Shown one piece after another: positions 19,836 through 43,999 of a stretch of 64,000 nt of DNA (within the stretch, counting starts at the first letter, position 1; the number at the start of each line of letters is the position of its first letter). The DNA lies in NCBI GenBank assembly GCA_035559235.1, contig DATMBM010000004.1, forward strand, positions 4,684 to 68,683, given 5' to 3'. A program made the position numbers and the translations under genes. The notes under the pieces were generated by a model that was not told where the DNA came from, made no database searches, and saw only the letters and a list, made by a program, of their open reading frames with translations. Origin of the DNA: Minisyncoccota bacterium. Its GTDB lineage: Bacteria > Patescibacteriota > Minisyncoccia > Phycocordibacterales > UBA2100.

Positions 19836-19856
19836 GGTGGCAGTCTAGCATATGCG

Positions 19857-19865
19857 TGCTATACT
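19857..19865 (+). promoter_or_regulatory. Extended -10 box TGcTATACT, 7 nt upstream of the ATG at 19873. It is divergent from a TAGACT box that serves the minus-strand VIT gene.
   Basis: The sequence reads gcgTGcTATACTttcgcgcATG. Confidence 0.4.
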
Positions 19866-19872
19866 TTCGCGC

Positions 19873-20253
19873 ATGAAAGGACGCGGCGTCACCATTTTTT
19901 GGATCGTTATCGGTGTATTAATCGTCGGAGGGTTTGCGGTCTCAGCGTACATGCGCACGTTGCCCGGCGAGTACGACGGGCTTGCGCAATGTTTGAAAGA
20001 CAAGGGCGCCGTGTTTTATGGCGCGTTTTGGTGCCCGCACTGCCAAACGCAAAAGCAAATGTTCGGCCGCTCGGCCGACCTTCTGCCGTACGTGGAGTGT
20101 TCAAATCCTGACGGACAGTCGCAAACGCAAGTGTGCATCGACAAAGGCGTCCAGCAGTATCCGACATGGGAATTTGCGGACGGCTCGCGTCTGACGGGCG
20201 AGCAAGAGCCTGCGGCGCTTGCCGAAAAAGCAGGATGCGCGCTTCCTGAATAG
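19873..20253 (+). CDS. Membrane-anchored thioredoxin-like protein with a CPHC active site (BdbD/DsbA-like partner of DsbB)
   Basis: N-terminal TM helix and the motif FYGAFWCPHCQTQKQMF. Start chosen at the second ATG on promoter-spacing grounds. Confidence 0.65.
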   Translation: MKGRGVTIFWIVIGVLIVGGFAVSAYMRTLPGEYDGLAQCLKDKGAVFYGAFWCPHCQTQKQMFGRSADLLPYVECSNPDGQSQTQVCIDKGVQQYPTWEFADGSRLTGEQEPAALAEKAGCALPE

Positions 20254-20259
20254 GAGACT

Positions 20260-20793
20260 ATGGGTCTCTTTGTTACGAACCTCTATCTTGGCTACGCCGC
20301 CCTCGGACTCCAAATTGCGACTATCGCGCTGCTTGCTGTATTCGTTGTAAGGGCGCGTTTTGAGACGTTTACAAAGCTTGCCACGATTGTCGGCAGATGG
20401 GGCCTGTGGCTTGGGTTTGCCGCAGCGTTGTTTGCAGCGCTCGCCAATCAGTATTACAACCAAGTCCTCGAGATTCCTCCGTGCGATCTGTGTTGGTGGG
20501 GGCGTATTTTCTTGTACCCGCAGATCATTCTCCTCGGTATGGCCGCATGGAAACGTGACAGCTATATGGCTGAATATTCCATCGTTCTCTCAGTGATCGG
20601 CGCCGGGATTTCCCTGTACCATCATTTTCTGCAGATGTTCCCGGATTCGCTCCCGTGCCCGGCGACGGGTGTTTCTTGTGCGCAGCGTTTCCTGTTCGAG
20701 TTTGGCTACATCACATATCCGTTGATGGCGTTCTCGCTCTTTGCGTTCTTGATCATCGTGATGCTTTTTGTTCGCGCTCGACGTGGGATGTAA
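20260..20793 (+). CDS. DsbB/BdbC-family disulfide bond formation protein B
   Basis: Four TM helices with periplasmic Cys pairs (PPCDLCWW and CPATGVSC), as in DsbB/BdbC. AGGAG Shine-Dalgarno upstream. Confidence 0.7.
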   Translation: MGLFVTNLYLGYAALGLQIATIALLAVFVVRARFETFTKLATIVGRWGLWLGFAAALFAALANQYYNQVLEIPPCDLCWWGRIFLYPQIILLGMAAWKRDSYMAEYSIVLSVIGAGISLYHHFLQMFPDSLPCPATGVSCAQRFLFEFGYITYPLMAFSLFAFLIIVMLFVRARRGM

Positions 20794-21310
20794 AAGCGGT
20801 GAGGAATTTTCGGAGTACCTGTGTTGTTTTTTCGTCCGACAGATTGAGATCGTCGTCAAATTTCTTCGATGATTCGCTGCAATAGAATTCCGGCTGGCCC
20901 ATCGTGCGTGCATTGAAGTAGCTCATCACGCGCCGGACGTCGAATTGCGCGAGATTTGCCCCGCGAAGTCCCGATGACGCGCCGATAATCCCCACGGGCT
21001 TCAGTTCCCACGGCAACGGTTCGTCTTCCGGCCGCGACGACCAGTCGAGAAAATTTTTCATGGGCGCAGCTGGGGTGCGGTTAAATTCCGGTACGGCGAG
21101 AAGCACACCGTCAGCCGCGCGTATGTTCTCGCGGAGCGTCTTCGCCGTCTCAGGATACGCCGCGTCCTCAAGATCCTGGTTGTAGATTGGAAGCATCGAA
21201 ATGTCGAGTATTTCAATACCCATCTCCGGTGCGAGTTTTTGTGCCGCGCGCAGGAGCGCGGTATTGTACGAACGTTTGCGCAGGCTTCCGGAGACCGCCA
21301 CCACGTGCAT
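20753..21310 (-). CDS. NAD(P)H-dependent FMN reductase (flavodoxin-like fold)
   Basis: MHVVAVSGSLRKRSYN… resembles the SsuE/ArsH-like FMN_red family. A TATACT box sits 6 nt upstream of the ATG (21317-21322, minus strand). Confidence 0.7.
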   Translation of the reverse strand: MHVVAVSGSLRKRSYNTALLRAAQKLAPEMGIEILDISMLPIYNQDLEDAAYPETAKTLRENIRAADGVLLAVPEFNRTPAAPMKNFLDWSSRPEDEPLPWELKPVGIIGASSGLRGANLAQFDVRRVMSYFNARTMGQPEFYCSESSKKFDDDLNLSDEKTTQVLRKFLTAFTSHVEREQKASR

Positions 21311-21326
21311 GGGGCGAGTATAGCAT

Positions 21327-22973
21327 TTAGTGCTTTTTGATCATGTATTTCTCGATATCCGCGAACGTTCCGCCCACCTTCTTGCCCGGATTGAAGATAT
21401 TTTGCGGATCGAAGATGCGTTTAACCTCGGCAAACAGCTGCACCATCTTCATCCCGAACATTTGCTCAAGGTAAGGTGTCCGGATAATGCCGTCGTTATG
21501 CTCTCCGGTTGACGAGCCGCCATACGCGAACACAAGGTCATACACTTTTGGCGTCAGTTCAAGGATCATGTTTCTCGCGCGCTCGTCGTTCAAATTGACA
21601 AGGGGGATGATATGGAAATTTCCGTTTCCGACGTGGCCCGCAATCGTATAGATGAGATCGTACTTCCCGAGCAGTTCGTAGAGAGCGGGGAGGAATTCGG
21701 CGTAGGTTGACGGAGGCACGACGAAATCGTCGATAAACGGCGATGCGTATAAGCCCTTCAGGTTTTTCCGGAGCAGGGCGAAGCTTTCATGGCGGATCGT
21801 CCAGTATTTCTTCTCCATCTCCCCGAACGCGAGCCTTGTTTTGACGGGAAGATCGCCCAGATCGTGGCGAATTTCTCGCACTTTATCTCTGGCCGCCTCG
21901 GGTGAATCTTCGGCGAATTCAGCCATGAGGACCAATTTGGGGACACCGCCCGTCACGACCATCCACAGCTCCGGAATGAATGCGAGCCCGAGACGGATCG
22001 TCTCGAGGAATCCAAAATGCCCGATGATTTGCGGCATGAATTTGACCGCAAGGCGGAATGTCTGGTCGTCATAACTTTCGAACGACTCCGGATCATGCTT
22101 CATGATCCGATTGACGATTTCTGGTAGGAGAGCGATATCCGTCAGGAACGCAACCACCATGGCCCGATGTTCTTTGAGCCGTACGGTTTTCATGCGCGCT
22201 TTGGTAACGAGGCACAACGTCCCCTGTGAGCCGACGACTAGTTTTGTAAGATCAAAGGTTCCTTTTTTCTCATCTATCACGTCCCACAGCGCGTATCCCG
22301 CGGAATTTTTCGAAACCTTCGGCCGAGCGGCCTCAATCACGTCCTCGTGTTCGAGAATGAGGTCGTGGACAGCGCGGTAGATGGAGCCCTCGAGCGTCTG
22401 CTCACTTTCCTTTTGTGCTAATTCGGACTGCGAAAGCGGACGAAATACTGCTGCGGAACCATCAGAAAGGACCACGTCCAGTTCCTCAACATAACGGTCG
22501 GTCTTCCCGTAGTGGAGCGTCAATTCGCCTCCGGAATTGTTCGCAATCATGCCGCCGAGCGCGCAGATGTCACGGGACGCAGGGAAGGAAGGTATCAGCG
22601 CATGTGCCTTTTCAAGAGTCTGAGCCTCCAAGTCGCGGTAAAAAACACCCGGCTCAGCTACGACATAATCGGAACCGACGTCGTAGACGCGATTCATGTG
22701 CTTCGTGAACGAGAGGACAATCGAGTCCGTAAGCGGTCCACCGCTCATGTCCGTTCCGGCAGAACGCGCCGCAATCGCAACATGCTCTCCACGCATTCGT
22801 GCCGCATGCACGTACTGCACAACCGCGGCAACATCCGATGCGTCTTTAGGGAAAACAACTATCGAAGGTTGACGTTCGAATATGCTCGTGTCGCGGCTGA
22901 AGGTGCGAAGCGTCGCTACATCATCCGCGATTTCACCCTTAATAAGGGATGCTAGATCGGCCTGAAGCGACAT
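21327..22973 (-). CDS. FAD-linked oxidase (GlcD/D-lactate dehydrogenase-like)
   Basis: FAD-binding PCMH domain (AARSAGTDMSGG) plus a C-terminal FAD-oxidase domain. A TATACT box sits 6 nt upstream of the ATG (22980-22985, minus strand). Confidence 0.8.
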   Translation of the reverse strand: MSLQADLASLIKGEIADDVATLRTFSRDTSIFERQPSIVVFPKDASDVAAVVQYVHAARMRGEHVAIAARSAGTDMSGGPLTDSIVLSFTKHMNRVYDVGSDYVVAEPGVFYRDLEAQTLEKAHALIPSFPASRDICALGGMIANNSGGELTLHYGKTDRYVEELDVVLSDGSAAVFRPLSQSELAQKESEQTLEGSIYRAVHDLILEHEDVIEAARPKVSKNSAGYALWDVIDEKKGTFDLTKLVVGSQGTLCLVTKARMKTVRLKEHRAMVVAFLTDIALLPEIVNRIMKHDPESFESYDDQTFRLAVKFMPQIIGHFGFLETIRLGLAFIPELWMVVTGGVPKLVLMAEFAEDSPEAARDKVREIRHDLGDLPVKTRLAFGEMEKKYWTIRHESFALLRKNLKGLYASPFIDDFVVPPSTYAEFLPALYELLGKYDLIYTIAGHVGNGNFHIIPLVNLNDERARNMILELTPKVYDLVFAYGGSSTGEHNDGIIRTPYLEQMFGMKMVQLFAEVKRIFDPQNIFNPGKKVGGTFADIEKYMIKKH

Positions 22974-23299: not shown

Positions 23300-24283
23300 A
23301 TGAAGCTCAACAGATTAGAAATTGCTGGAATTTTTTCTGCCGTTGTACTGGTGATCCTCGCGGGCGTATTTTTCGCGGGGCAAGTCGTGCACGCGGATGA
23401 AAATTTAACCCCGGTTGACCCATGTGAGGACATTTTTCCCAGTGTTCCGGGAATGCCCGGCTGTGACGAATCAGGCGGTGGAAACGATGATGAGAGCCAG
23501 GGCGGGAACGAAACACCAGTAGATCCATGTGAAGACATTTTCCCGAATATCCCGAACATGCCTGAGTGCGAAGGAGGCGATGATGGAGGAAGTGGTGGAG
23601 GAGAGACTGACCTCTGCCCGAATGACGAAGGTGTTCAAACATCTACACCGTGCCCGTCTGACGAGGACGATGAAGGCTCTGAGGGCGGCTCGTCAGGTGG
23701 CGGAGGCAGCGGCAGCAGTGGCGGAGGGGGTGGTAGTGGCAGCGGGGGGTCTGGCGGCGGATCTGTCCTCGGCGCATCCACAGGCGGCGGCCTGAGCTGC
23801 GAATATCTGACCGGCTTTATCAAGCCTGGCAGCAAGAACGATTTCTTCCAAGTTGCCCGACTCCAGGCTTTCCTCAAGGTCTTCGAAGGGGCAAGTGTTC
23901 AGGTGAATGGCACGTACGATGCGGCGTCTATCGCAGCGGTACACGCCTTCCAGACCAAGTATGCGTCTGAAATCCTTACGCCCTGGGGCGTCTCACGATC
24001 AACCGGGTATGTCTATCTCACGACCCGAAAAAAAGTGAACGAGATCTATTGCGACCGCAATTTCTCCTTCCCGCTTACCGAAGAAGAGCAACAGATCATC
24101 GAGCACAAGAAGTCGGCTCCGACGTCTGTTGTGCGCCCGGCGCAGCCTCGAGTGCAGCCTCAGGCACCTGCGGCACCACAACAGCCAGAGACGGAAGAGC
24201 GCGAAGAGGAGACGCCGGTCGTGAATACACCGACCAGCTCATTTACCGACTTTTTCCGACGGTTGTTTGAGCGATTCCGATAG
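23300..24283 (+). CDS. Secreted Gly/Ser/Asp-rich protein with a C-terminal peptidoglycan-binding-like domain
   Basis: Signal anchor (MKLNRLEIAGIFSAVVLVILAGVFFAG). Two copies of the repeat TPVDPCEDIFP(S/N)(V/I)P(G/N)MP(G/E)C, then a poly-GS stretch. The C-terminus (…VARLQAFLKVFEG…VNGTYDAASIAAVHAFQTKYASEILTPWGVSRSTGYVYLTTRKKVN) resembles PG_binding_1. Confidence 0.6.
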   Translation: MKLNRLEIAGIFSAVVLVILAGVFFAGQVVHADENLTPVDPCEDIFPSVPGMPGCDESGGGNDDESQGGNETPVDPCEDIFPNIPNMPECEGGDDGGSGGGETDLCPNDEGVQTSTPCPSDEDDEGSEGGSSGGGGSGSSGGGGGSGSGGSGGGSVLGASTGGGLSCEYLTGFIKPGSKNDFFQVARLQAFLKVFEGASVQVNGTYDAASIAAVHAFQTKYASEILTPWGVSRSTGYVYLTTRKKVNEIYCDRNFSFPLTEEEQQIIEHKKSAPTSVVRPAQPRVQPQAPAAPQQPETEEREEETPVVNTPTSSFTDFFRRLFERFR

Positions 24284-24304
24284 AAGCACGTGATCTTTAG
24301 AAAA

Positions 24305-24385
24305 GGAGCCGGAGCGGGTCCGAGGCAGACAGCTTTACGCTGGTTTCCCTACTGTCTTGGGCCCACTCCGGCTCCTTTTCTTTTG
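24305..24385 (+). terminator. Long stem-loop terminator
   Basis: GGAGCCGGAGCGGGTCC … GGGCCCACTCCGGCTCC followed by TTTTCTTTTGG. Confidence 0.5.
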
Positions 24386-24853
24386 GGGCAGCCATTGCTC
24401 GCTGTGATATGCCTTGTTTGTGCGACACATTGACTCACTCCGTACTTTGTATCGAATTGTTATCCACAGTAGCAAATACGTTGACTTCCTACTGAGACAC
24501 GAGATAATTCGCGCAATCAGTACGCAGAGGGGGCGTACCGAGAAATAAAGGGAACCAGCGAAAAGGGAAACCAGCGATGTAAGTCGCATGGTTTATTTTA
24601 TTTCTCACTCCGGTTTTGTTGCGCCGAACGCGTCACACGCGTGCGGCGTTTTTGCGTTTGTTCGGATGAGAGGGATCGCGTGAAGTGTACGGTGCGATCC
24701 CCCTCCCCGGGGGGACCGCGCCGTGGACTGCACGGGGGTTTAGCGGCCCAGACGAGTCCACCAGGTCGAACCTCAGCATTGCGCCATCCGTACGGGGGCG
24801 GAATGAGGAGATTAGTAGGGAACTTTATAAGAAATTCTAAATTCACACAGACT

Positions 24854-25753
24854 ATGACACAGACACTCAATTACAGTGCAGCGGTTGCAACGATCGCAGC
24901 ACTTGTCTTGTCCATGACGGCAGTCGGTACGGCCTTCGCAGGCTCGAACTCCGAACTCGATCTTGACATGGACAATGATGTGAAGATCAAAGTCACAAAC
25001 AACGCCAACGTCATCAGCTCGACCTCGGCTTCGGCTTCGACCGGCGGTAACTACGCTGGTGGCTCCTACGGTGGCAACGGCGGCAACGGCGGCGACGGCG
25101 AAGAGGGCGGCGAAGCAGATGCTGATGCAGATGCAGATGCTGACGCAGACCACGATGGCGACGCTGATGCAAACGCAGACGCGACGGCAAACGGTGGTGA
25201 CGGTGGTAAGGGCGGCAAAGGCGGCCGCGGCGGCGATGTCGGCGTTGGCGGCACGGTTGTGACCGGCGACGCGACGGCAAACGCTGGCTCGATGAATGTC
25301 GTCAACTCGAACGACATTAAGGTTGAAGGCTGTGGCTGCGATGCAGACCTCGGCGACCTCGATGATTTCGACGATGCCGACGTGGACCTCGAGAACGAGG
25401 TTGAAGTCGAGCTTCACAACAACGGCTTCGTCTACAGCCGCACGGATGCGTACGCTAAGACTGGCTGGAACAAAGCCGGCGGTTCTTCGGGCGGCAACGG
25501 CGGCGAAGGCGGCAAAGGAGAAGAGGGCGGCAAGGCAGATGCTGACGCAGATGCGGACGCAGATGCTGACGGCCACGATGACTCGAATGCAGACGCTGAC
25601 GCTGACGCCAATGGCGGCGACGGTGGCAGTGGCGCGAAGGGTGGTCGCGGCGGCGATGTCGGTGAGGGCGGTCTCGTTTCGACGGGCAATGCTCGCACCA
25701 ACTCGGGCTCGATCAACGTCGTGAACACGAACCTTGTTCGTGTAATCCGATAG
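24854..25753 (+). CDS. Secreted Gly/Asp/Ala-rich protein made of two tandem repeats of about 150 aa
   Basis: Signal peptide (MTQTLNYSAAVATIAALVLSMTAVGTAFA). Each repeat has GGNGG…(AD)n…GGDGG(K/S)G…GGRGGDVG…TGDATANAGSMNVVNSN / TGNARTNSGSINVVNTN. Confidence 0.6.
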   Translation: MTQTLNYSAAVATIAALVLSMTAVGTAFAGSNSELDLDMDNDVKIKVTNNANVISSTSASASTGGNYAGGSYGGNGGNGGDGEEGGEADADADADADADHDGDADANADATANGGDGGKGGKGGRGGDVGVGGTVVTGDATANAGSMNVVNSNDIKVEGCGCDADLGDLDDFDDADVDLENEVEVELHNNGFVYSRTDAYAKTGWNKAGGSSGGNGGEGGKGEEGGKADADADADADADGHDDSNADADADANGGDGGSGAKGGRGGDVGEGGLVSTGNARTNSGSINVVNTNLVRVIR

Positions 25754-25892
25754 TTGCTCACAGAAGGCAGGGAGGCCCTCCAATGACTGCAAGGTCAAAG
25801 GACGGGTAAACAACTCCCTCCTTCTCATGGAAATCGAAGCCTCCCGGTTTGGGTTTCCATAGGAAGGACATTACAAGCGAAACCACGATCCT

Positions 25893-28856
25893 ATGAAAAT
25901 TACGCATCCGTACCTCATGAAAATCGCGAGCATCATTACAGTGTTCGTGCTTGTGTCCGTCTATACGATGCCGCTCATTACGGTGCACGCGGAAGGCGAA
26001 GGAGGCGGCGAATCATCGTCGGTTGGTGGCTCGGGAGGTGATGGCGGCAGTGGTGGAAGCGGAGATACGGGAGGCGCCGGTGGCAACGCCGGAGGCGGAG
26101 GAGACGCGAACAGCTCGTCTTCGGGCGACAGTTCTTCGACTGCCGGAGGAGGCGGTACCGGGGGCAGTGGCGGGGACAGCACCGGCGGAGGATCAAGCGG
26201 AACAGGAGGTGATGGCGGTGAAGGAGGCGCCGGCGGGAACGCGCAAGACACTTCTAATGGCGGCTCATCGGAAGCAACTGGCGGCAACGGCGGCGACGGC
26301 GGCAGTGGCGGTAATGCCGAAGGAAATGGCACCGCAGGTAGCGGAGGAACTGGCGCGGGAGGAGGAGATGCCAATGCGAACTCAAATACAGACAACGGAT
26401 CAGACGCATCAGCAGATGCGCAAGGCGGCAATGGCGGAGGTGGGGGAAGTGGTGGTGATGGCACTGGTGCCAATGCAGACGGCGGCAACGGCGGCGACGC
26501 CGGAACGGGGGGCGATGCGAACGGGAATGCCAACGCCAACGGTGGTGGGGACGCCGATGCGGGAGCGACCGGAGGCGACGGAGGAAGCGGTGGTGACGGT
26601 GGTTCAGGCGGGGACGCCAATGGTGCAACACCCGACGGCGCACCAACGACGATCGCTACAGGCGATGCGAATTCCTCGGCGAGCGCTGGTGGAAGTTCGA
26701 ACACGACTGATGCGACAGTCCCGCTCGGTAATGAGGCGAACGATGACGAGACTGAGCTCAAACTTGAAAACGTGCTCGGCGCAACGACTACCGCAACGTC
26801 GACGGCGGAAACGGGAGAGAACGTGATCGAAGAGGCTGAAGACGGGACCATCCTCACCGGCGCGGCAAACGCCTTCAGCTGGATTTTCGCGCTCTTCAAC
26901 GTTGCAGTCGTGAATTCGACCGGCTCCATCCATTTCTATAAAAATCCGGTCGGTGAAGCGTTGAATTTCACCCAGCGATTCGTTGACGCATTCCGTAACA
27001 TGGCGCGCGACGGCGCATGCTCGCTCGTCCGCTGCGACGGAATCGACGGCGTCGTCCTCAAGGTGTACAACGAAAACGTCGCAAATGTCGAAAATGTCGC
27101 CGTGTCCCGCGCTCAGTCGGGCGGCAACGATTGCAGCAGCACCGACGGGACTTGTGAAATCGGGACCGGAGACACCGACGCGATGTCGGGTATCGTAAAC
27201 GTCGGTAACCTCACGATGGTTGATTCGCGCTACCTCCTCCTCTTTATGGCAAATCAGGGTGACCTTGACGGAGACATCCTGCTGCCGGACGGCGCATTCT
27301 TCGAATCGCTCTCGACGGGCGCCCGCATCGGTCGTGCAAGTGATATCGAAGCGTCATCGACCGCAGAAATCATCGACACGGCATCCTCGACCGCCGAAAC
27401 CGGCGCCAATACGGCGATTGGCCCCGAAGGCTCTGTAATCGAGACCGGTGATGCGAACGCGCATGCATCCGACATAAACTTCGTAAACCAGCTCGGTGCG
27501 CCGATCTGCTTCATCGTCGCCGTTGGGGGTGAGTGGCGCGGCGACGTCGTGCAGTTACCAGGCATGTTCTCGCACGAAAGCGCGCCATTTGGCGAAATCA
27601 TCTGTGGTGCCGGAGGCTCCTCGCGCGATCCCGTAACTGGTCTGGAACTAGAAGTGGAAAACTACGCAAAAATCTTCAACACGGCGATCGCTGAGGCGGT
27701 CAGCGGCAACAACGAAGCGCAAGGTCTCCTGGCGAAAATCAAGACGGGTGACGCGAGCGCCTTCGCGCAAATCCTCAACCTCGTCAACGTAACGCTTATC
27801 GGACAGGACTGGATCTTCGCCAACTTTGCGATTTCCGGCGATTGGGACGGCGATCTGGTCTTCGGCGTGAAGCCGGGCGAGGACGACATCCTCGGTGACC
27901 TCATCGAGGAGCACGTTCTCGGCGTCTCCGGCGGCAGTGCAAGCGTCTGGAACCACCCGGAACCTAAAATCACCATGGTAAAGACAGCCGATGTCGAACA
28001 GGCGATGTCTCCAGCGACTGTTAATTACACGATCGTCGTGAACAACAACGGCGGTGACGCAACAGACGTCGTCGTTGTCGACACCATGAAGGGTCCGGAC
28101 GGCTCCGTAATCGGCAAGCAGATGTGGAAACTTGGGAATGTGAAGAGTAAGGAAGAAGTGAAAATCACCTACACGGTCGAATTCAAAGGCGATGTGACGA
28201 CGGGCTACTACACCAACACCGCAGTCCTCACCGGCAAGCGAAGCACCGGCAGCAGCCTCACCAAGGTGACTGCAACCGACGTGGTTGAAGTTGGCGTAGC
28301 CGAAGTGCTTGGGGAATCCTGCGCACCGATCCTGACCGAATACATCCGGCCGTGGCGCACAAATTCGCCGGAACAAGTCCGCTCGTTGCAGTCCTTCCTC
28401 AATGCCTACGAAGGAGAAACGCTTGCGGAGACCGGCGTGTACAATAGTGCGACGCAAGCAGCGGTGAAGCGCTTCCAGGGCAAATATGCGAGCGATATCT
28501 TGGCTCCATGGGGCATCTCGCAGCCGACCGGCAACGTCTACTACACGACCCAGAAAAAGGTTAACCAGATGGCGTGCGCCGACATCGACTTCTCGCTGAC
28601 ACCCGCACAGATCGCTGAAATCGAATCCTTCAAGGCGTCAACGAAGCAGAAGCAAGAGCAGACGATCCAGGAGGGCAATACCGGTGTGACGCCGAAGCAC
28701 CTGCTGGAGTTGCCGTTCGTTGCCGCGCCGGTTTTCTTCAAGACGGATGCGTCGCAAGGTCAGCCGGCATCGACGTCGGCGCTGCTCCAGCAGCAGTTGA
28801 AAGTCTTCGCATCATGGCTAGTGTTCGCGCCGCTTGTTGAAGCGTTCGAGATATAA
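25893..28856 (+). CDS. Large cell-surface protein: signal peptide, a Gly-rich region of about 230 aa, five TGDAxA…VN motif units, a DUF11-like domain and a C-terminal PG-binding-like domain
   Basis: 987 aa. The DUF11-like stretch is TIVVNNNGGDATDVVVVDTM. The C-terminus is homologous to that of the 23300 gene (QVRSLQSFLNAYEG…VKRFQGKYASDILAPWGISQPTGNVYYTTQKKVN). Confidence 0.7.
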   Translation: MKITHPYLMKIASIITVFVLVSVYTMPLITVHAEGEGGGESSSVGGSGGDGGSGGSGDTGGAGGNAGGGGDANSSSSGDSSSTAGGGGTGGSGGDSTGGGSSGTGGDGGEGGAGGNAQDTSNGGSSEATGGNGGDGGSGGNAEGNGTAGSGGTGAGGGDANANSNTDNGSDASADAQGGNGGGGGSGGDGTGANADGGNGGDAGTGGDANGNANANGGGDADAGATGGDGGSGGDGGSGGDANGATPDGAPTTIATGDANSSASAGGSSNTTDATVPLGNEANDDETELKLENVLGATTTATSTAETGENVIEEAEDGTILTGAANAFSWIFALFNVAVVNSTGSIHFYKNPVGEALNFTQRFVDAFRNMARDGACSLVRCDGIDGVVLKVYNENVANVENVAVSRAQSGGNDCSSTDGTCEIGTGDTDAMSGIVNVGNLTMVDSRYLLLFMANQGDLDGDILLPDGAFFESLSTGARIGRASDIEASSTAEIIDTASSTAETGANTAIGPEGSVIETGDANAHASDINFVNQLGAPICFIVAVGGEWRGDVVQLPGMFSHESAPFGEIICGAGGSSRDPVTGLELEVENYAKIFNTAIAEAVSGNNEAQGLLAKIKTGDASAFAQILNLVNVTLIGQDWIFANFAISGDWDGDLVFGVKPGEDDILGDLIEEHVLGVSGGSASVWNHPEPKITMVKTADVEQAMSPATVNYTIVVNNNGGDATDVVVVDTMKGPDGSVIGKQMWKLGNVKSKEEVKITYTVEFKGDVTTGYYTNTAVLTGKRSTGSSLTKVTATDVVEVGVAEVLGESCAPILTEYIRPWRTNSPEQVRSLQSFLNAYEGETLAETGVYNSATQAAVKRFQGKYASDILAPWGISQPTGNVYYTTQKKVNQMACADIDFSLTPAQIAEIESFKASTKQKQEQTIQEGNTGVTPKHLLELPFVAAPVFFKTDASQGQPASTSALLQQQLKVFASWLVFAPLVEAFEI

Positions 28857-28874
28857 GGAGCCGTCCTGAGAACC

Positions 28875-29396
28875 ATGAAAAGACTCTTCGCCATCAGCTT
28901 GCTTGCGATGGTTGCGGCGCCGCTTGCGGCGAACGCCGACTGGATCGAAGACGTGATTGAAGTCGTGAAATCAGGCAACGGTACAGTCGTCGAGTCGCAC
29001 TCTTCCGCTTCGACCGGCGGGCAGACGGCGGCGAGCGGGCAAACGGTTACGACCGGAGACGTGAGCGCATCGTCGCATACCGAAACGCGCATCAATGCAA
29101 ATTCTTCCGGCGGGGAGGTAACGGTGAAGGTTGAGACATCGCGAAACGGCGAGACGGAGACGAAAGAATATGCGCAACCGATTGAGCCGGAGGCGGGAGT
29201 GCATGTCGAAGTAAACGCGCATGCGACCAACGATGAGACGAACAGTGAGGTGCGAGTCGACGGAGAAGTTGTTGCGGAAACCGGAAGTGATTCACACGCT
29301 GAATCTAGTAGTACATCCGCCGGGATCTCGGCCTTTTTCACTGCGTCCGTGCCAAACTTTTTCAAAAAGGTGCTTTCCTTCTTCAGTTGGTTCTAG
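28875..29396 (+). CDS. Small secreted protein carrying one TGDVSASSHTETRINANSSG motif unit
   Basis: Signal peptide (MKRLFAISLLAMVAAPLAANA) and an AAGGAG Shine-Dalgarno. The motif is related to those in the two upstream genes. Confidence 0.55.
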   Translation: MKRLFAISLLAMVAAPLAANADWIEDVIEVVKSGNGTVVESHSSASTGGQTAASGQTVTTGDVSASSHTETRINANSSGGEVTVKVETSRNGETETKEYAQPIEPEAGVHVEVNAHATNDETNSEVRVDGEVVAETGSDSHAESSSTSAGISAFFTASVPNFFKKVLSFFSWF

Positions 29397-29541: not shown

Positions 29542-30528
29542 ATGGCGCGGCGAAAACGGCGCGGAATCGACCTTGGAGATTTTGGGTGGAGTCCGCGATT
29601 TTTGAAAGAAGAAGTATATGTCGCGACGTTTGTGCTCGTCGTATGTCTTTTTGCCGGTGCGGGCATGCTCGATCGCTACATCAAAGAGGCAGAATCCCCT
29701 TACATCGCAGCGGTTATAGCAGCGGTACTGACGGAGCTTGCGAACGAGGATCGGCAGCAGGAGGGGCTACGGGCATTGCAAACCAATCCAAAGTTAGTTG
29801 CAGCGGCCCAGCGCAAGGCCGATGACATGGCAGCGAAGGGATACTTCGCGCACGAGACGCCGGAAGGGCATAATTCCTGGCACTGGTTTCGGGAAGTAGG
29901 CTACGACTATGCGTACGCCGGGGAGAATCTTGCGGTGAATTTTTCTGAAAGCGCCGACGTCGAGAAAGCGTGGATGGCTTCGCCGACGCACCGCGAAAAC
30001 ATATTGAATGCGCGGTACACGGAGATCGGTATCGCGACGGCCGTCGGGACGTATAAAGGAAAGCCCGCGATTTTCGCGGTACAGATGTTTGGGCACCCAT
30101 CGGAAGCAGAGTTGCGATCGCGTGAGAGTGCCCCTGGCGACGTACCGGCTCGTGCGCCGGCGTCCGCGACAGCCACATCGGTCGGGGCGACGCTGGGCGA
30201 AGCGACAGAAACGGAAGAAGTACAGCCGATTGGCGCGCTCGCGGAAGAAGATGGTGACGCGGCGGTCATCGCCGAATCAGACATCCCGTGGTGGGCGTAT
30301 CTGGCAGCGCAGCCGAAGCAGACATTGCGATATGCATACTATGTGCTCGGTCTCCTCATCCTGGCGGCGCTTTTCTTTGACATGGAACTCGAGCTGAAGT
30401 GGCATCACTTCCGCCATGCGCGCAAAGCCGGATACCTACTCGCGACGATGTCCATGCTCTTCATCGCCGCCGACTGGCTCTTTTTTGCGGAGCCGACACT
30501 TGCAGTACTAGGAATATTGGCCCATTAG
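29542..30528 (+). CDS. CAP/SCP/PR1-like (YkwD-type) domain protein with flanking TM helices
   Basis: CAP-domain pattern LQTNPKLVAAAQRKADDMAAKGYFAHETPEGHNSWHWF…GENLAVNFSESADVEKAWMASPTHRENIL. One N-terminal and about three C-terminal TM helices. Confidence 0.65.
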   Translation: MARRKRRGIDLGDFGWSPRFLKEEVYVATFVLVVCLFAGAGMLDRYIKEAESPYIAAVIAAVLTELANEDRQQEGLRALQTNPKLVAAAQRKADDMAAKGYFAHETPEGHNSWHWFREVGYDYAYAGENLAVNFSESADVEKAWMASPTHRENILNARYTEIGIATAVGTYKGKPAIFAVQMFGHPSEAELRSRESAPGDVPARAPASATATSVGATLGEATETEEVQPIGALAEEDGDAAVIAESDIPWWAYLAAQPKQTLRYAYYVLGLLILAALFFDMELELKWHHFRHARKAGYLLATMSMLFIAADWLFFAEPTLAVLGILAH

Positions 30529-36195: not shown

Positions 36196-36508
36196 TGTCC
36201 TGCGCTAAGCAGCCGCTTCGTCCAAGACGGAGAGGAAAGTCCGGACACGCGTGATTCAGTTCAAATGGTAGCGGGTAACGCCCGCCCGGGTAATCCGAGG
36301 GATGCGAACAGAGACGTCCGAGCCGAGAGGCGAGGAGATCCGCAAGGATCAGCTGATACGGAAACGTATCAGGTGCAACGGCAAAATTCCTACCTGCGTG
36401 CAAGGTCGTGTCACCCAACATGGGTGGAGAACCGCTCGAGGTGGTTGGTAACAACCATCCCAGATACATGGCTGCTCTCGACAGAATCCGGCTTATTGTG
36501 CAGCGAAC
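36196..36508 (+). ncRNA. rnpB: RNase P RNA (bacterial type), compact at about 310 nt
   Basis: Conserved P4 5' strand GAGGAAAGUCCGGAC at 36232-36246 and P4 3' strand ACAGAAUCCGGCUUAU at 36481-36496. A short P3 hairpin (CGUCcaaGACG) is present. The 5' and 3' ends are approximate. Confidence 0.7.
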
Positions 36509-42783: not shown

Positions 42784-42855
42784 TGACCCTAGCGGGAATC
42801 GAACCCGCGTTAACAGCTTGAAAAGCTGCTGTCCTAACCACTAGACGATAGGGCC
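42784..42855 (-). tRNA. tRNA-Glu (anticodon UUC)
   Basis: Reverse complement reads GGCCCTA-TC-GTCT-AGTGGTTA-GGAC-A-GCAGC-TTTTCAA-GCTGT-TAAC-GCGGG-TTCGATT-CCCGC-TAGGGTC-A. This is a 72-nt cloverleaf with T-loop TTCGATT and no encoded CCA. Confidence 0.85.
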
Positions 42856-43912: not shown

Positions 43913-43999
43913 GGAGAGGTGGCTGAGTGGTCGAAAGCACCGCACTCGAAATGCGGCAGGTTCGAAAGGGCCTCGAGAGTTCGAATCTCTCCCTCTCCG
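43913..43999 (+). tRNA. tRNA-Ser (anticodon CGA), class II with a long variable arm
   Basis: GGAGAGG-TG-GCT-GAGTGGTCGAA-AGC-A-CCGCA-CTCGAAA-TGCGG-[CAGGTTCGAAAGGGCCTCG]-GAGAG-TTCGAAT-CTCTC-CCTCTCC-G, 87 nt. A hairpin plus T-run follows at 44008-44040. Confidence 0.85.

Follow-up and report, generated by a model that had tools for sequence, protein, structure and literature searches.

The 64,000-nucleotide stretch of DNA analysed here (the window) contains four consecutive genes, g1 to g4, which we propose to be part of a conserved Patescibacteria envelope cluster encoding a wall-tethered multi-protein surface structure, a reading to which we assign a probability of roughly 55%. The source is a metagenome-assembled genome (MAG) of Candidatus Paceibacterota, a Patescibacterium, confirming the small-genome organism supposed in an initial annotation made from the sequence. 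Patescibacteria (the candidate phyla radiation, CPR) account for a large part of the diversity of bacteria and live attached to other cells, and to our knowledge their cell-surface proteins are almost entirely unassigned. The analysis yields a widespread, unannotated repeat domain found in thousands of protein clusters, with no Pfam model and no structural relative, together with a fixed four-unit module, a recurrent three-protein set plus wall-binding domains, and a dedicated leader RNA. The logic of a surface adhesin or coat is known; what would be new is the undescribed domain, the conserved small partners, and the cluster's own leader RNA. All four are genuine genes: we found each open reading frame (ORF) on the + strand as first annotated (Table 1), and every peptide quoted at that time is present in the translations. 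g1 is identical to NCBI HWO07085.1, recorded as 'hypothetical protein [Candidatus Paceibacterota bacterium]', and the contig itself also exists as a Logan assembly.

The feature that links g2-g4 is the repeat unit. Judged from homologues of the g3 core, the TGDAxA...VNxVN motif, initially taken for a unit of about 20 residues, makes up the latter half of a unit spanning ~75 amino acids (aa) that is organised as a fixed four-unit module, with the consensus xxVxxxNxAxIxNxVxxxAxTGxNxAxxNTGxxxIxTGDAxAxxxVxNxxNxN and, in g3-type proteins, an optional extension after the unit, S..hhhh.N.fGdWdGd..F. We built a unit hidden Markov model (HMM) without g3 and its close relatives and scored each protein against 200 shuffles of itself. 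g3 reached 97.4 bits (best shuffle, 5.9 bits) and g2 reached 23.3 bits (best shuffle, 0.4 bits); the score of g4 was not significant (-3.4 bits; best shuffle, 6.7 bits), and g1 gave no match (best shuffle, 2.5 bits). Searches of g2-g4 and of nine diverse relatives matched the unit to nothing in Pfam-A or NCBIfam, and the unit profile found no relative among PDB sequences, its sole match, to an epimerase, being at chance level (E of 0.25); the initial opinion that this is no described domain was therefore upheld. When 1.84 billion cluster representatives were searched exhaustively with the HMM, 3,871 proteins carried the unit at E of <=1e-3 and 1,518 at E of <=1e-30. The database names encountered for family members were only 'hypothetical protein', 'peptidoglycan-binding protein', and 'TIGR01451 family repeat protein', with Parcubacteria, Kaiserbacteria, Nomurabacteria, and Microgenomates as sources. 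By these sequence searches, the repeat unit is a previously undescribed, yet widespread domain. Exactly four full units occurred in 108 of the 171 proteins examined and five in another 41. The linkers were position specific in an 88-sequence alignment (C....C, LP...FF, and FGRPDLW following units 1, 2, and 4, respectively), indicating that the four-unit module is an old, fixed architecture and not a recent repeat expansion. Co-occurrence of the motif did not vanish when homologues from other genomes were aligned but became stronger.

The module is found in g3, which begins with a signal-like N terminus (aa 1-33) and continues through a Gly/Asp/Ser/Asn-rich low-complexity region (aa 34-240), a half-unit (aa 243-265), the four-unit module, a CLIPPER domain, and a PG_binding_1-type domain to a tail ending in W..FAPLVEAFEI. 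AlphaFold2 modelling of aa 240-681 with an alignment of 88 sequences gave a confident fold (mean predicted local distance difference test [pLDDT] of 87.4; predicted template modelling score [pTM] of 0.85) that is all-beta, each unit contributing paired strands of 16-21 residues. Foldseek returned no match to the g3 module model below an E of 0.1. The model suggests a beta-solenoid-like domain without a close solved relative, in which the stacking geometry is tentative.

The DUF11-like segment first noticed in gene 3 was substantiated, as it scored above the Pfam gathering threshold (GA) for both DUF7507 (PF24346; 29.9 bits, GA 27) and DUF11 (PF01345; 27.2 bits, GA 24.6). DUF11 has been renamed CLIPPER, a CnaA-like immunoglobulin (Ig) domain with a crystal structure revealing a Lys-Asn isopeptide bond and a catalytic Asp (PMC12617251). 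K697, D730, and N775 of the g3 domain do not vary among four close homologues, and K and D lie 33 residues apart, as they do in the crystallised CLIPPER 9IFR (K715 and D748; PMC12617251). The g3 CLIPPER is probably locked by an intramolecular isopeptide bond. A PDB sequence search with this domain produced spurious designed-armadillo matches and did not retrieve 9IFR. g3 shares with CLIPPER-stalk fibrillar adhesins (PMC12617251) a putative signal peptide, a distal non-stalk module, a CLIPPER Ig-like domain that conserves the K/D/N positions, and a C-terminal anchor region. In contrast to those adhesins, the proteins studied here have one or two CLIPPER domains rather than a long tandem stalk, the distal module of g3 is an undescribed four-repeat all-beta domain, its anchor is a PG_binding_1-type domain plus an unusual tail and neither LPXTG nor OmpA, and small partner proteins are conserved alongside it.

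The second domain relevant to anchoring occurs in both g1 and g3. g1 consists of a signal-like N terminus, a Cys-containing acidic/Gly-rich region, the PG_binding_1-type domain, a Pro/Gln-rich linker, and an amphipathic tail. The initial annotation described homologous ends of about 90 aa in g1 and g3. The homology stood (E of ~1e-23), but the domain spans ~110 aa and is followed by a tail of 55-75 aa, so that it does not form the extreme C terminus. Its resemblance to PG_binding_1 (PF01471; GA 23) was borne out by g3, which scored 26.8 bits as a whole protein and 31 bits as an isolated domain, by matches of 30 out of 30 homologous copies (best, 2.9e-8), and by a family profile that retrieved from the PDB the peptidoglycan (PG)-binding domains of 1lbu, 5tv7, 7rum, and SleB, among them that of an endolysin; g1 alone scored 14.1 bits, below the GA. 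The first two helices and an LQxxL...G.FD..T..AV..FQ signature are common to this domain and the PG_binding_1 domains of wall hydrolases (Streptomyces Zn D-Ala-D-Ala carboxypeptidase 1lbu and SleB). Unlike in these hydrolases, the third-helix region, corresponding to the C-terminal third of the model, is replaced by a conserved, Cys-bracketed extension (PWG....TGYVYYTTQKKxNExxC), and the domain sits on structural proteins and not on enzymes. None of g1-g4 has a C-terminal LPXTG or LAXTG signal, the sole LAETG lying within the PG_binding_1-type domain. We infer that the domains of g1 and g3 may bind the cell's own wall. As a separate observation, g1 homologues (L007, 3757-4938; L009, 4042-5235; L010, 3419-4678; L numbers denote homologous loci) bear CxDGxDNDxDGxxDxxDPxC repeats, a Cys-bracketed DxDxDG motif of calcium- or metal-binding-like type, and g1 of the window has instead two copies of another Cys-containing repeat, TPVDPCEDIFPxxPxMPxC.

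g2 is a small protein, predicted to be secreted, with two units that are each interrupted by a Gly/Asp/Ala-rich loop, an invariant CGC between its halves, and a C terminus ending in ...NVVNTNLVRVIR. In the family alignment, g2-like proteins always have two halves around the invariant CGC and end in ...NVVNxNxxRVxR. At least 202 clusters are related to g2, all of them unnamed and none with a Pfam match. A g2 start at the upstream ATG 24803 was ruled out, as stops follow it in L005 and L006 and it is out of frame in L010; the fact that g2 homologues all begin with MT(K/Q)T also counts against it. g4, also small and predicted to be secreted, carries a single degenerate unit (aa ~29-74), is rich in Ser, Thr, and Glu in its middle part, and has an amphipathic C-terminal tail of aromatic/basic character that ends in ...PNFFKKVLSFFSWF. 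Such aromatic/basic tails terminate both g1 and g4 (DFFRRLFERFR and NFFKKVLSFFSWF, respectively), and similar ones are found on many family members. We count g4 as unit bearing because of family-level evidence: the g4 family aligned with the unit profile in hhalign (E of 1.9e-4; probability of 48%), the g4 HMM matched g2 at 3.5e-4, and divergent g4 homologues display the unit more clearly than g4 does in the family alignment. The original assignment of a recurring unit to genes 2 to 4 thus holds for g2 and g3, far above their shuffles, and for g4 at the family level only.

We scanned for related loci with one genome per species and found 52, of which 51 are in Patescibacteria MAGs. The exception, L053 (CBFDVE010000468.1, 1.8 kb), is the only g3-type locus outside the Patescibacteria label and comes from a very short contig binned as Rhodospirillaceae, suggesting that it is probably mis-binned. 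The order g1-g2-g3-g4 is kept in L005, L006, L007, L009, and L010 and partly in L012, with g1 homologues at the same position in L005-L007, L009, L010, and L012. In ~30 of the 52 loci, a g3-like gene is immediately preceded by a g2-like gene. Downstream of the g3-like gene, 12 genome loci have a g4-like gene, and the two also adjoin each other in the metagenome loci L125, L113, and L082. Comparison of neighbourhoods across related genomes therefore identifies a conserved cluster. In L178, L179, and L180, which represent distant subfamilies with other anchors, the three protein classes occur in the order g2-g4-g3; L057 has three unit proteins in tandem, and L056 has a small unit protein upstream with two sortases and a CAP gene nearby. 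That three distinct architectures are kept across rearranged loci is our main argument for joint function. Furthermore, 73 of the 141 long family members end in a transmembrane (TM) helix and a basic tail, which would place the C terminus at the membrane and the repeat module distal to it, outside the cell. A CAP-domain homologue follows g4 in L002, L004-L007, L010, and L011; a CAP gene also lies ~500 nt downstream of a protein with the PG_binding_1-type domain but no units in L046, and another is close to a distant member of the family in L056. The CAP-domain gene is probably a fifth member of the cluster.

The N termini of g1-g4 each have a hydrophobic stretch followed by an AxA-type site (VHA/D, AFA/G, VHA/E, and ANA/D, respectively), and these signal-like sequences are kept in homologues in the family alignments, in agreement with the exported-type N termini first noted; all four proteins are predicted to be exported. 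The description of the four as dominated by Gly, Asp, Ser, and Ala applies to g1-g3 (Gly, 14-21%) and fails for g4, which is rich in Ser, Ala, Val, Glu, and Thr. The conserved Cys pairs, together with an upstream DsbB gene and a thioredoxin-like gene, fit extracytoplasmic proteins. Cys residues are many in g1-g3 and include CGC in g2, C....C in g3, and the pair around the PG_binding_1-type domain, which the thioredoxin-like, DsbB, and FAD-linked oxidase neighbours fit.

The claim of a dedicated surface system was upheld in part: a new surface-protein family is supported, but the four-gene operon-like block is not, as g1 has its own probable terminator and g2-g4 have their own promoter-like site and structured leader. 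The hairpin after g1 has a minimum free energy of -65.1 kcal/mol (z of -6.98), and 0 of 200 shuffles were as stable, which argues that g1 is a separate transcription unit; in Rfam it found spurious microRNA-type hairpin matches only. This hairpin is flanked by A- and U-tracts and is possibly a bidirectional terminator. The TTGAC...GATAAT boxes upstream of g2 align across the window, L010, and L011, a consensus match alone being weak evidence, and DNA-level conservation extends over the ~340 nt from the promoter-like site to the start of g2. Over the whole region, promoter and terminator counts did not exceed those of shuffles, and we kept only individually supported sites. A GGGAA(A)CCAGCG box occurs twice (24550-24560 and 24565-24576, +) close to where transcription of the g2 leader is predicted to begin, and similar boxes in two to three copies align in L005-L009.

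The leader RNA is composed of a 22-bp hairpin (P1), a single-stranded conserved GGTCGA, and an 11-bp hairpin (P2) around CCGUACGG. We found 16 instances, 8 in genome and 8 in metagenome loci, and each of the 16 is just upstream of a g2-like gene; the metagenome search was a 17-mer scan that returned mostly chance matches, with the real element in 8 of the 80 loci retrieved. Its structure is conserved: 97.6% of cells were paired, versus 37-53% when partners were slid, and 12 pairs had compensatory changes, versus 3.8 ± 1.5 in shuffles (0 of 500 reached 12), with P1 holding 10 covarying pairs. At the gathering score, nothing from Rfam in the whole window matches the element, and at E of <=10 only chance matches appeared (mir-6644 at 16.2 bits, GA 82; Six3os1_5 at 8.4 bits, GA 50). 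The covariance model had zero instances in more distant loci, so that the element is confined to the clade nearest the window. We consider this leader a candidate new cis-regulatory RNA, which could act as a riboswitch, a protein-binding leader, or an attenuator.

These findings can be combined in a model of a wall-tethered surface structure. Exported g3 would stay near the cell via its C-terminal PG_binding_1-type domain and hydrophobic tail, with a TM helix standing in for this anchor in paralogous subfamilies. The CLIPPER Ig-like domain of g3 would form a short stalk, and the four-unit beta module would be held outward beneath the flexible Gly/Asp-rich N-terminal region. g2, with two units, and g4, with one, may dock onto or extend this module by beta-sheet edge contacts between like units, and we infer that the three co-assemble and function as a surface coat or in adhesion. 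This arrangement recalls the long wall-anchored and short secreted chaplins of Streptomyces and curli CsgB/CsgA, in which one repeat is common to an anchored protein and to small secreted subunits; the likeness concerns a possible working mode only and not family membership. g1 would be a second protein with the same wall-binding domain, transcribed separately, while g2-g3-g4 would be expressed from their own promoter through the structured leader RNA. Together, the repeat domain, its four-unit module, the three-protein set, and the leader RNA offer specific candidates, open to testing, for the envelope or attachment structures observed on Patescibacteria by cryo-electron microscopy, as well as material for one new Pfam family and one new Rfam family.

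Several points weigh against this model. The cluster is known here from genes and predictions, its signal peptides were assessed by eye and by conservation only, and co-assembly is a proposal that draws on the shared units and not on structural computation. The fold predicted for the g3 module is monomeric and complete in itself, so that partners would not be required. The AlphaFold2 model of g2 has similar long strands in both halves at moderate confidence (pLDDT of 71; pTM of 0.42) and no meaningful PDB matches, and the unit of g4 falls short of significance by itself. The PG_binding_1 alignment is partial (model positions 3-41 of 57), and what this domain binds could be the wall of a host and not the cell's own.

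The best-surviving alternative, unlikely but to be taken seriously, is that these proteins are independent paralogous surface adhesins, clustered by tandem duplication and shared regulation, with each acting alone. The predicted folding of the g3 module as a complete unit by itself would suit this idea, as would the CLIPPER domains, which are typical of fibrillar adhesin stalks (PMC12617251), and the tandem unit proteins of L057, which look like duplications. Against this, the three size classes keep distinct architectures (the CGC and ...RVxR end of g2; the one unit and amphipathic tail of g4) and co-occur across distant subfamilies despite changed gene order, unlike the products of recent duplication.

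A bolder version of the multi-protein structure, which we judge somewhat less likely than independent adhesins, is a Patescibacteria-specific templated surface fibre or sheath of g3, g2, and g4, controlled by the leader and possibly serving as a contact surface in episymbiosis. Here, wall-tethered g3 with its four-rung beta-solenoid would nucleate polymerisation of secreted g2 subunits bearing the same rung, g4 would cap the polymer or link it to the membrane, and a new ligand- or protein-sensing leader RNA would control expression. If true, the system would be functional-amyloid-like, and its fold and repeat would have no relation to those of curli, Fap, and chaplins. There is no sequence relationship to chaplins or curli and no Pfam match to DUF320 or Curlin_rpt, the unit is ~75 aa compared with ~22-40 in chaplins and curli, and the cluster comes without CsgG/E/F-type secretion machinery or a sortase motif. 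The prediction for the g3 module is a closed domain of four units, and an amyloid or polymer state is hypothetical here. The cluster proteins have neither the repeat sequence family of curli/Fap (CsgA and FapC) nor a close beta-solenoid fold match, and g1-g4 lack a Pfam chaplin match or a C-terminal LAXTG. They also differ from RTX beta-roll and PE_PGRS-type Gly-rich repeat proteins: they lack the GGxGxDxUx nonapeptide periodicity and do not match HemolysinCabind in Pfam, and their Gly-rich parts are loops or spacers and not a conserved fold.

It is improbable that g3, with or without g2, is an S-layer protein forming a two-dimensional lattice bound noncovalently to peptidoglycan via the PG_binding_1-type domain: Pfam and NCBIfam searches of g1-g4 found no SLH or S-layer match and no other known anchoring module, and many family members are TM anchored with different tails. 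We give slightly less credence again to a host-directed system, in which the PG_binding_1-type domains would bind the host wall and the repeat module or Gly-rich region would attack or attach. Patescibacteria are episymbionts, the cluster has genes for a CAP-domain protein and a secreted nuclease nearby, and PG-binding domains have been proposed for host attachment in Paceibacteria (PMC10936435). Yet the PG_binding_1-type domain is C-terminal beside tails that are membrane anchors in paralogues, suggesting a position near the producer's own wall, and relatives that parasitise murein-less archaea also express PG-binding-domain proteins (PMC10936435). Secreted proteins of this kind, possible homologues of g3, are reported among the most highly expressed unknowns in three archaea-parasitising Paceibacteria (PMC10936435). 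Finally, many overlapping alternative-frame ORFs and a very biased composition might suggest low-complexity artefacts, with ORFs arising in GC-rich repetitive DNA, but this is effectively refuted by conservation over dozens of genomes, conserved domain order, Pfam scores above threshold, and the confident AlphaFold2 fold.

Table 1. Positions of the cluster genes, their domains, associated signals, and other features of the window, with leader RNA instances in homologous loci
Feature	Position	Strand	Description
g1	23300-24283	+	327-aa ORF, ATG start and stop
g1 divergent PG_binding_1-type domain	23795-24112	+	aa 166-271; C-domain HMM E 1.7e-45
Putative intrinsic terminator	24299-24386	+	Long GC-rich hairpin and U-tract directly after g1 stop
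Promoter-like site TTGACT-16-GATAAT	24481-24508	+	Consensus scan 10/12; upstream of g2 leader
Structured leader RNA	24678-24808	+	Upstream of g2; covariance model 132 bits
g2	24854-25753	+	299-aa ORF, ATG start and stop
g2 units			aa 43-73 + 129-164 and aa 183-213 + 269-296; split by loop
g3	25893-28856	+	987-aa ORF, ATG start and stop
g3 four-unit all-beta module (predicted)	26748-27863	+	aa 286-657; units 287-355, 389-463, 483-554, 583-657
g3 CLIPPER (DUF11/DUF7507) Ig-like domain	27960-28262	+	aa 690-790
g3 divergent PG_binding_1-type domain	28314-28634	+	aa 808-914; two conserved Cys bracket the domain
g4	28875-29396	+	173-aa ORF, ATG start and stop; begins 18 nt past g3
CAP/SCP-domain membrane protein	29542-30528	+	Pfam CAP 66.4 bits; downstream of g4
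Thioredoxin-like, DsbB, and FAD-linked oxidase genes	19852-22973		Upstream of g1; syntenic in L005-L007
Bacterial RNase P RNA class A	36200-36507		Ordinary feature of the window
Two tRNA genes	42784-42855 and 43913-43999		Ordinary features of the window
Leader RNA, genome instances	L005 5652-5783; L006 5620-5751; L007 5604-5736; L009 5886-6030; L010 5379-5492; L011 285-417; L014 4804-4917		In addition to the window
Leader RNA, metagenome instances	L081, L082, L104, L111, L113, L122, L124, L125		

The genes flanking the cluster are typical of Patescibacteria and encode a thioredoxin-like protein, DsbB, an FMN reductase, an FAD-linked oxidase, the CAP-domain protein, a secreted nuclease, and MurJ. 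In two distant loci, L056 (4817-4981) and L057 (717-926), the genes of unit proteins have upstream of them small ORFs of DUF2292-like type (…GSxEIYVxNSxVTQIT…), which the window lacks. In one subfamily (P0024, encoded at L056 6001-8829, and P0027-29, P0038, P0050, P0057, P0124, and P0125), the proteins end in the conserved tail (D/N)ILPYVLLFILSSLWI(V/I)EKS(R/K)K, which may be an unusual sorting signal; the L056 6001-8829 gene is flanked by two sortase genes.

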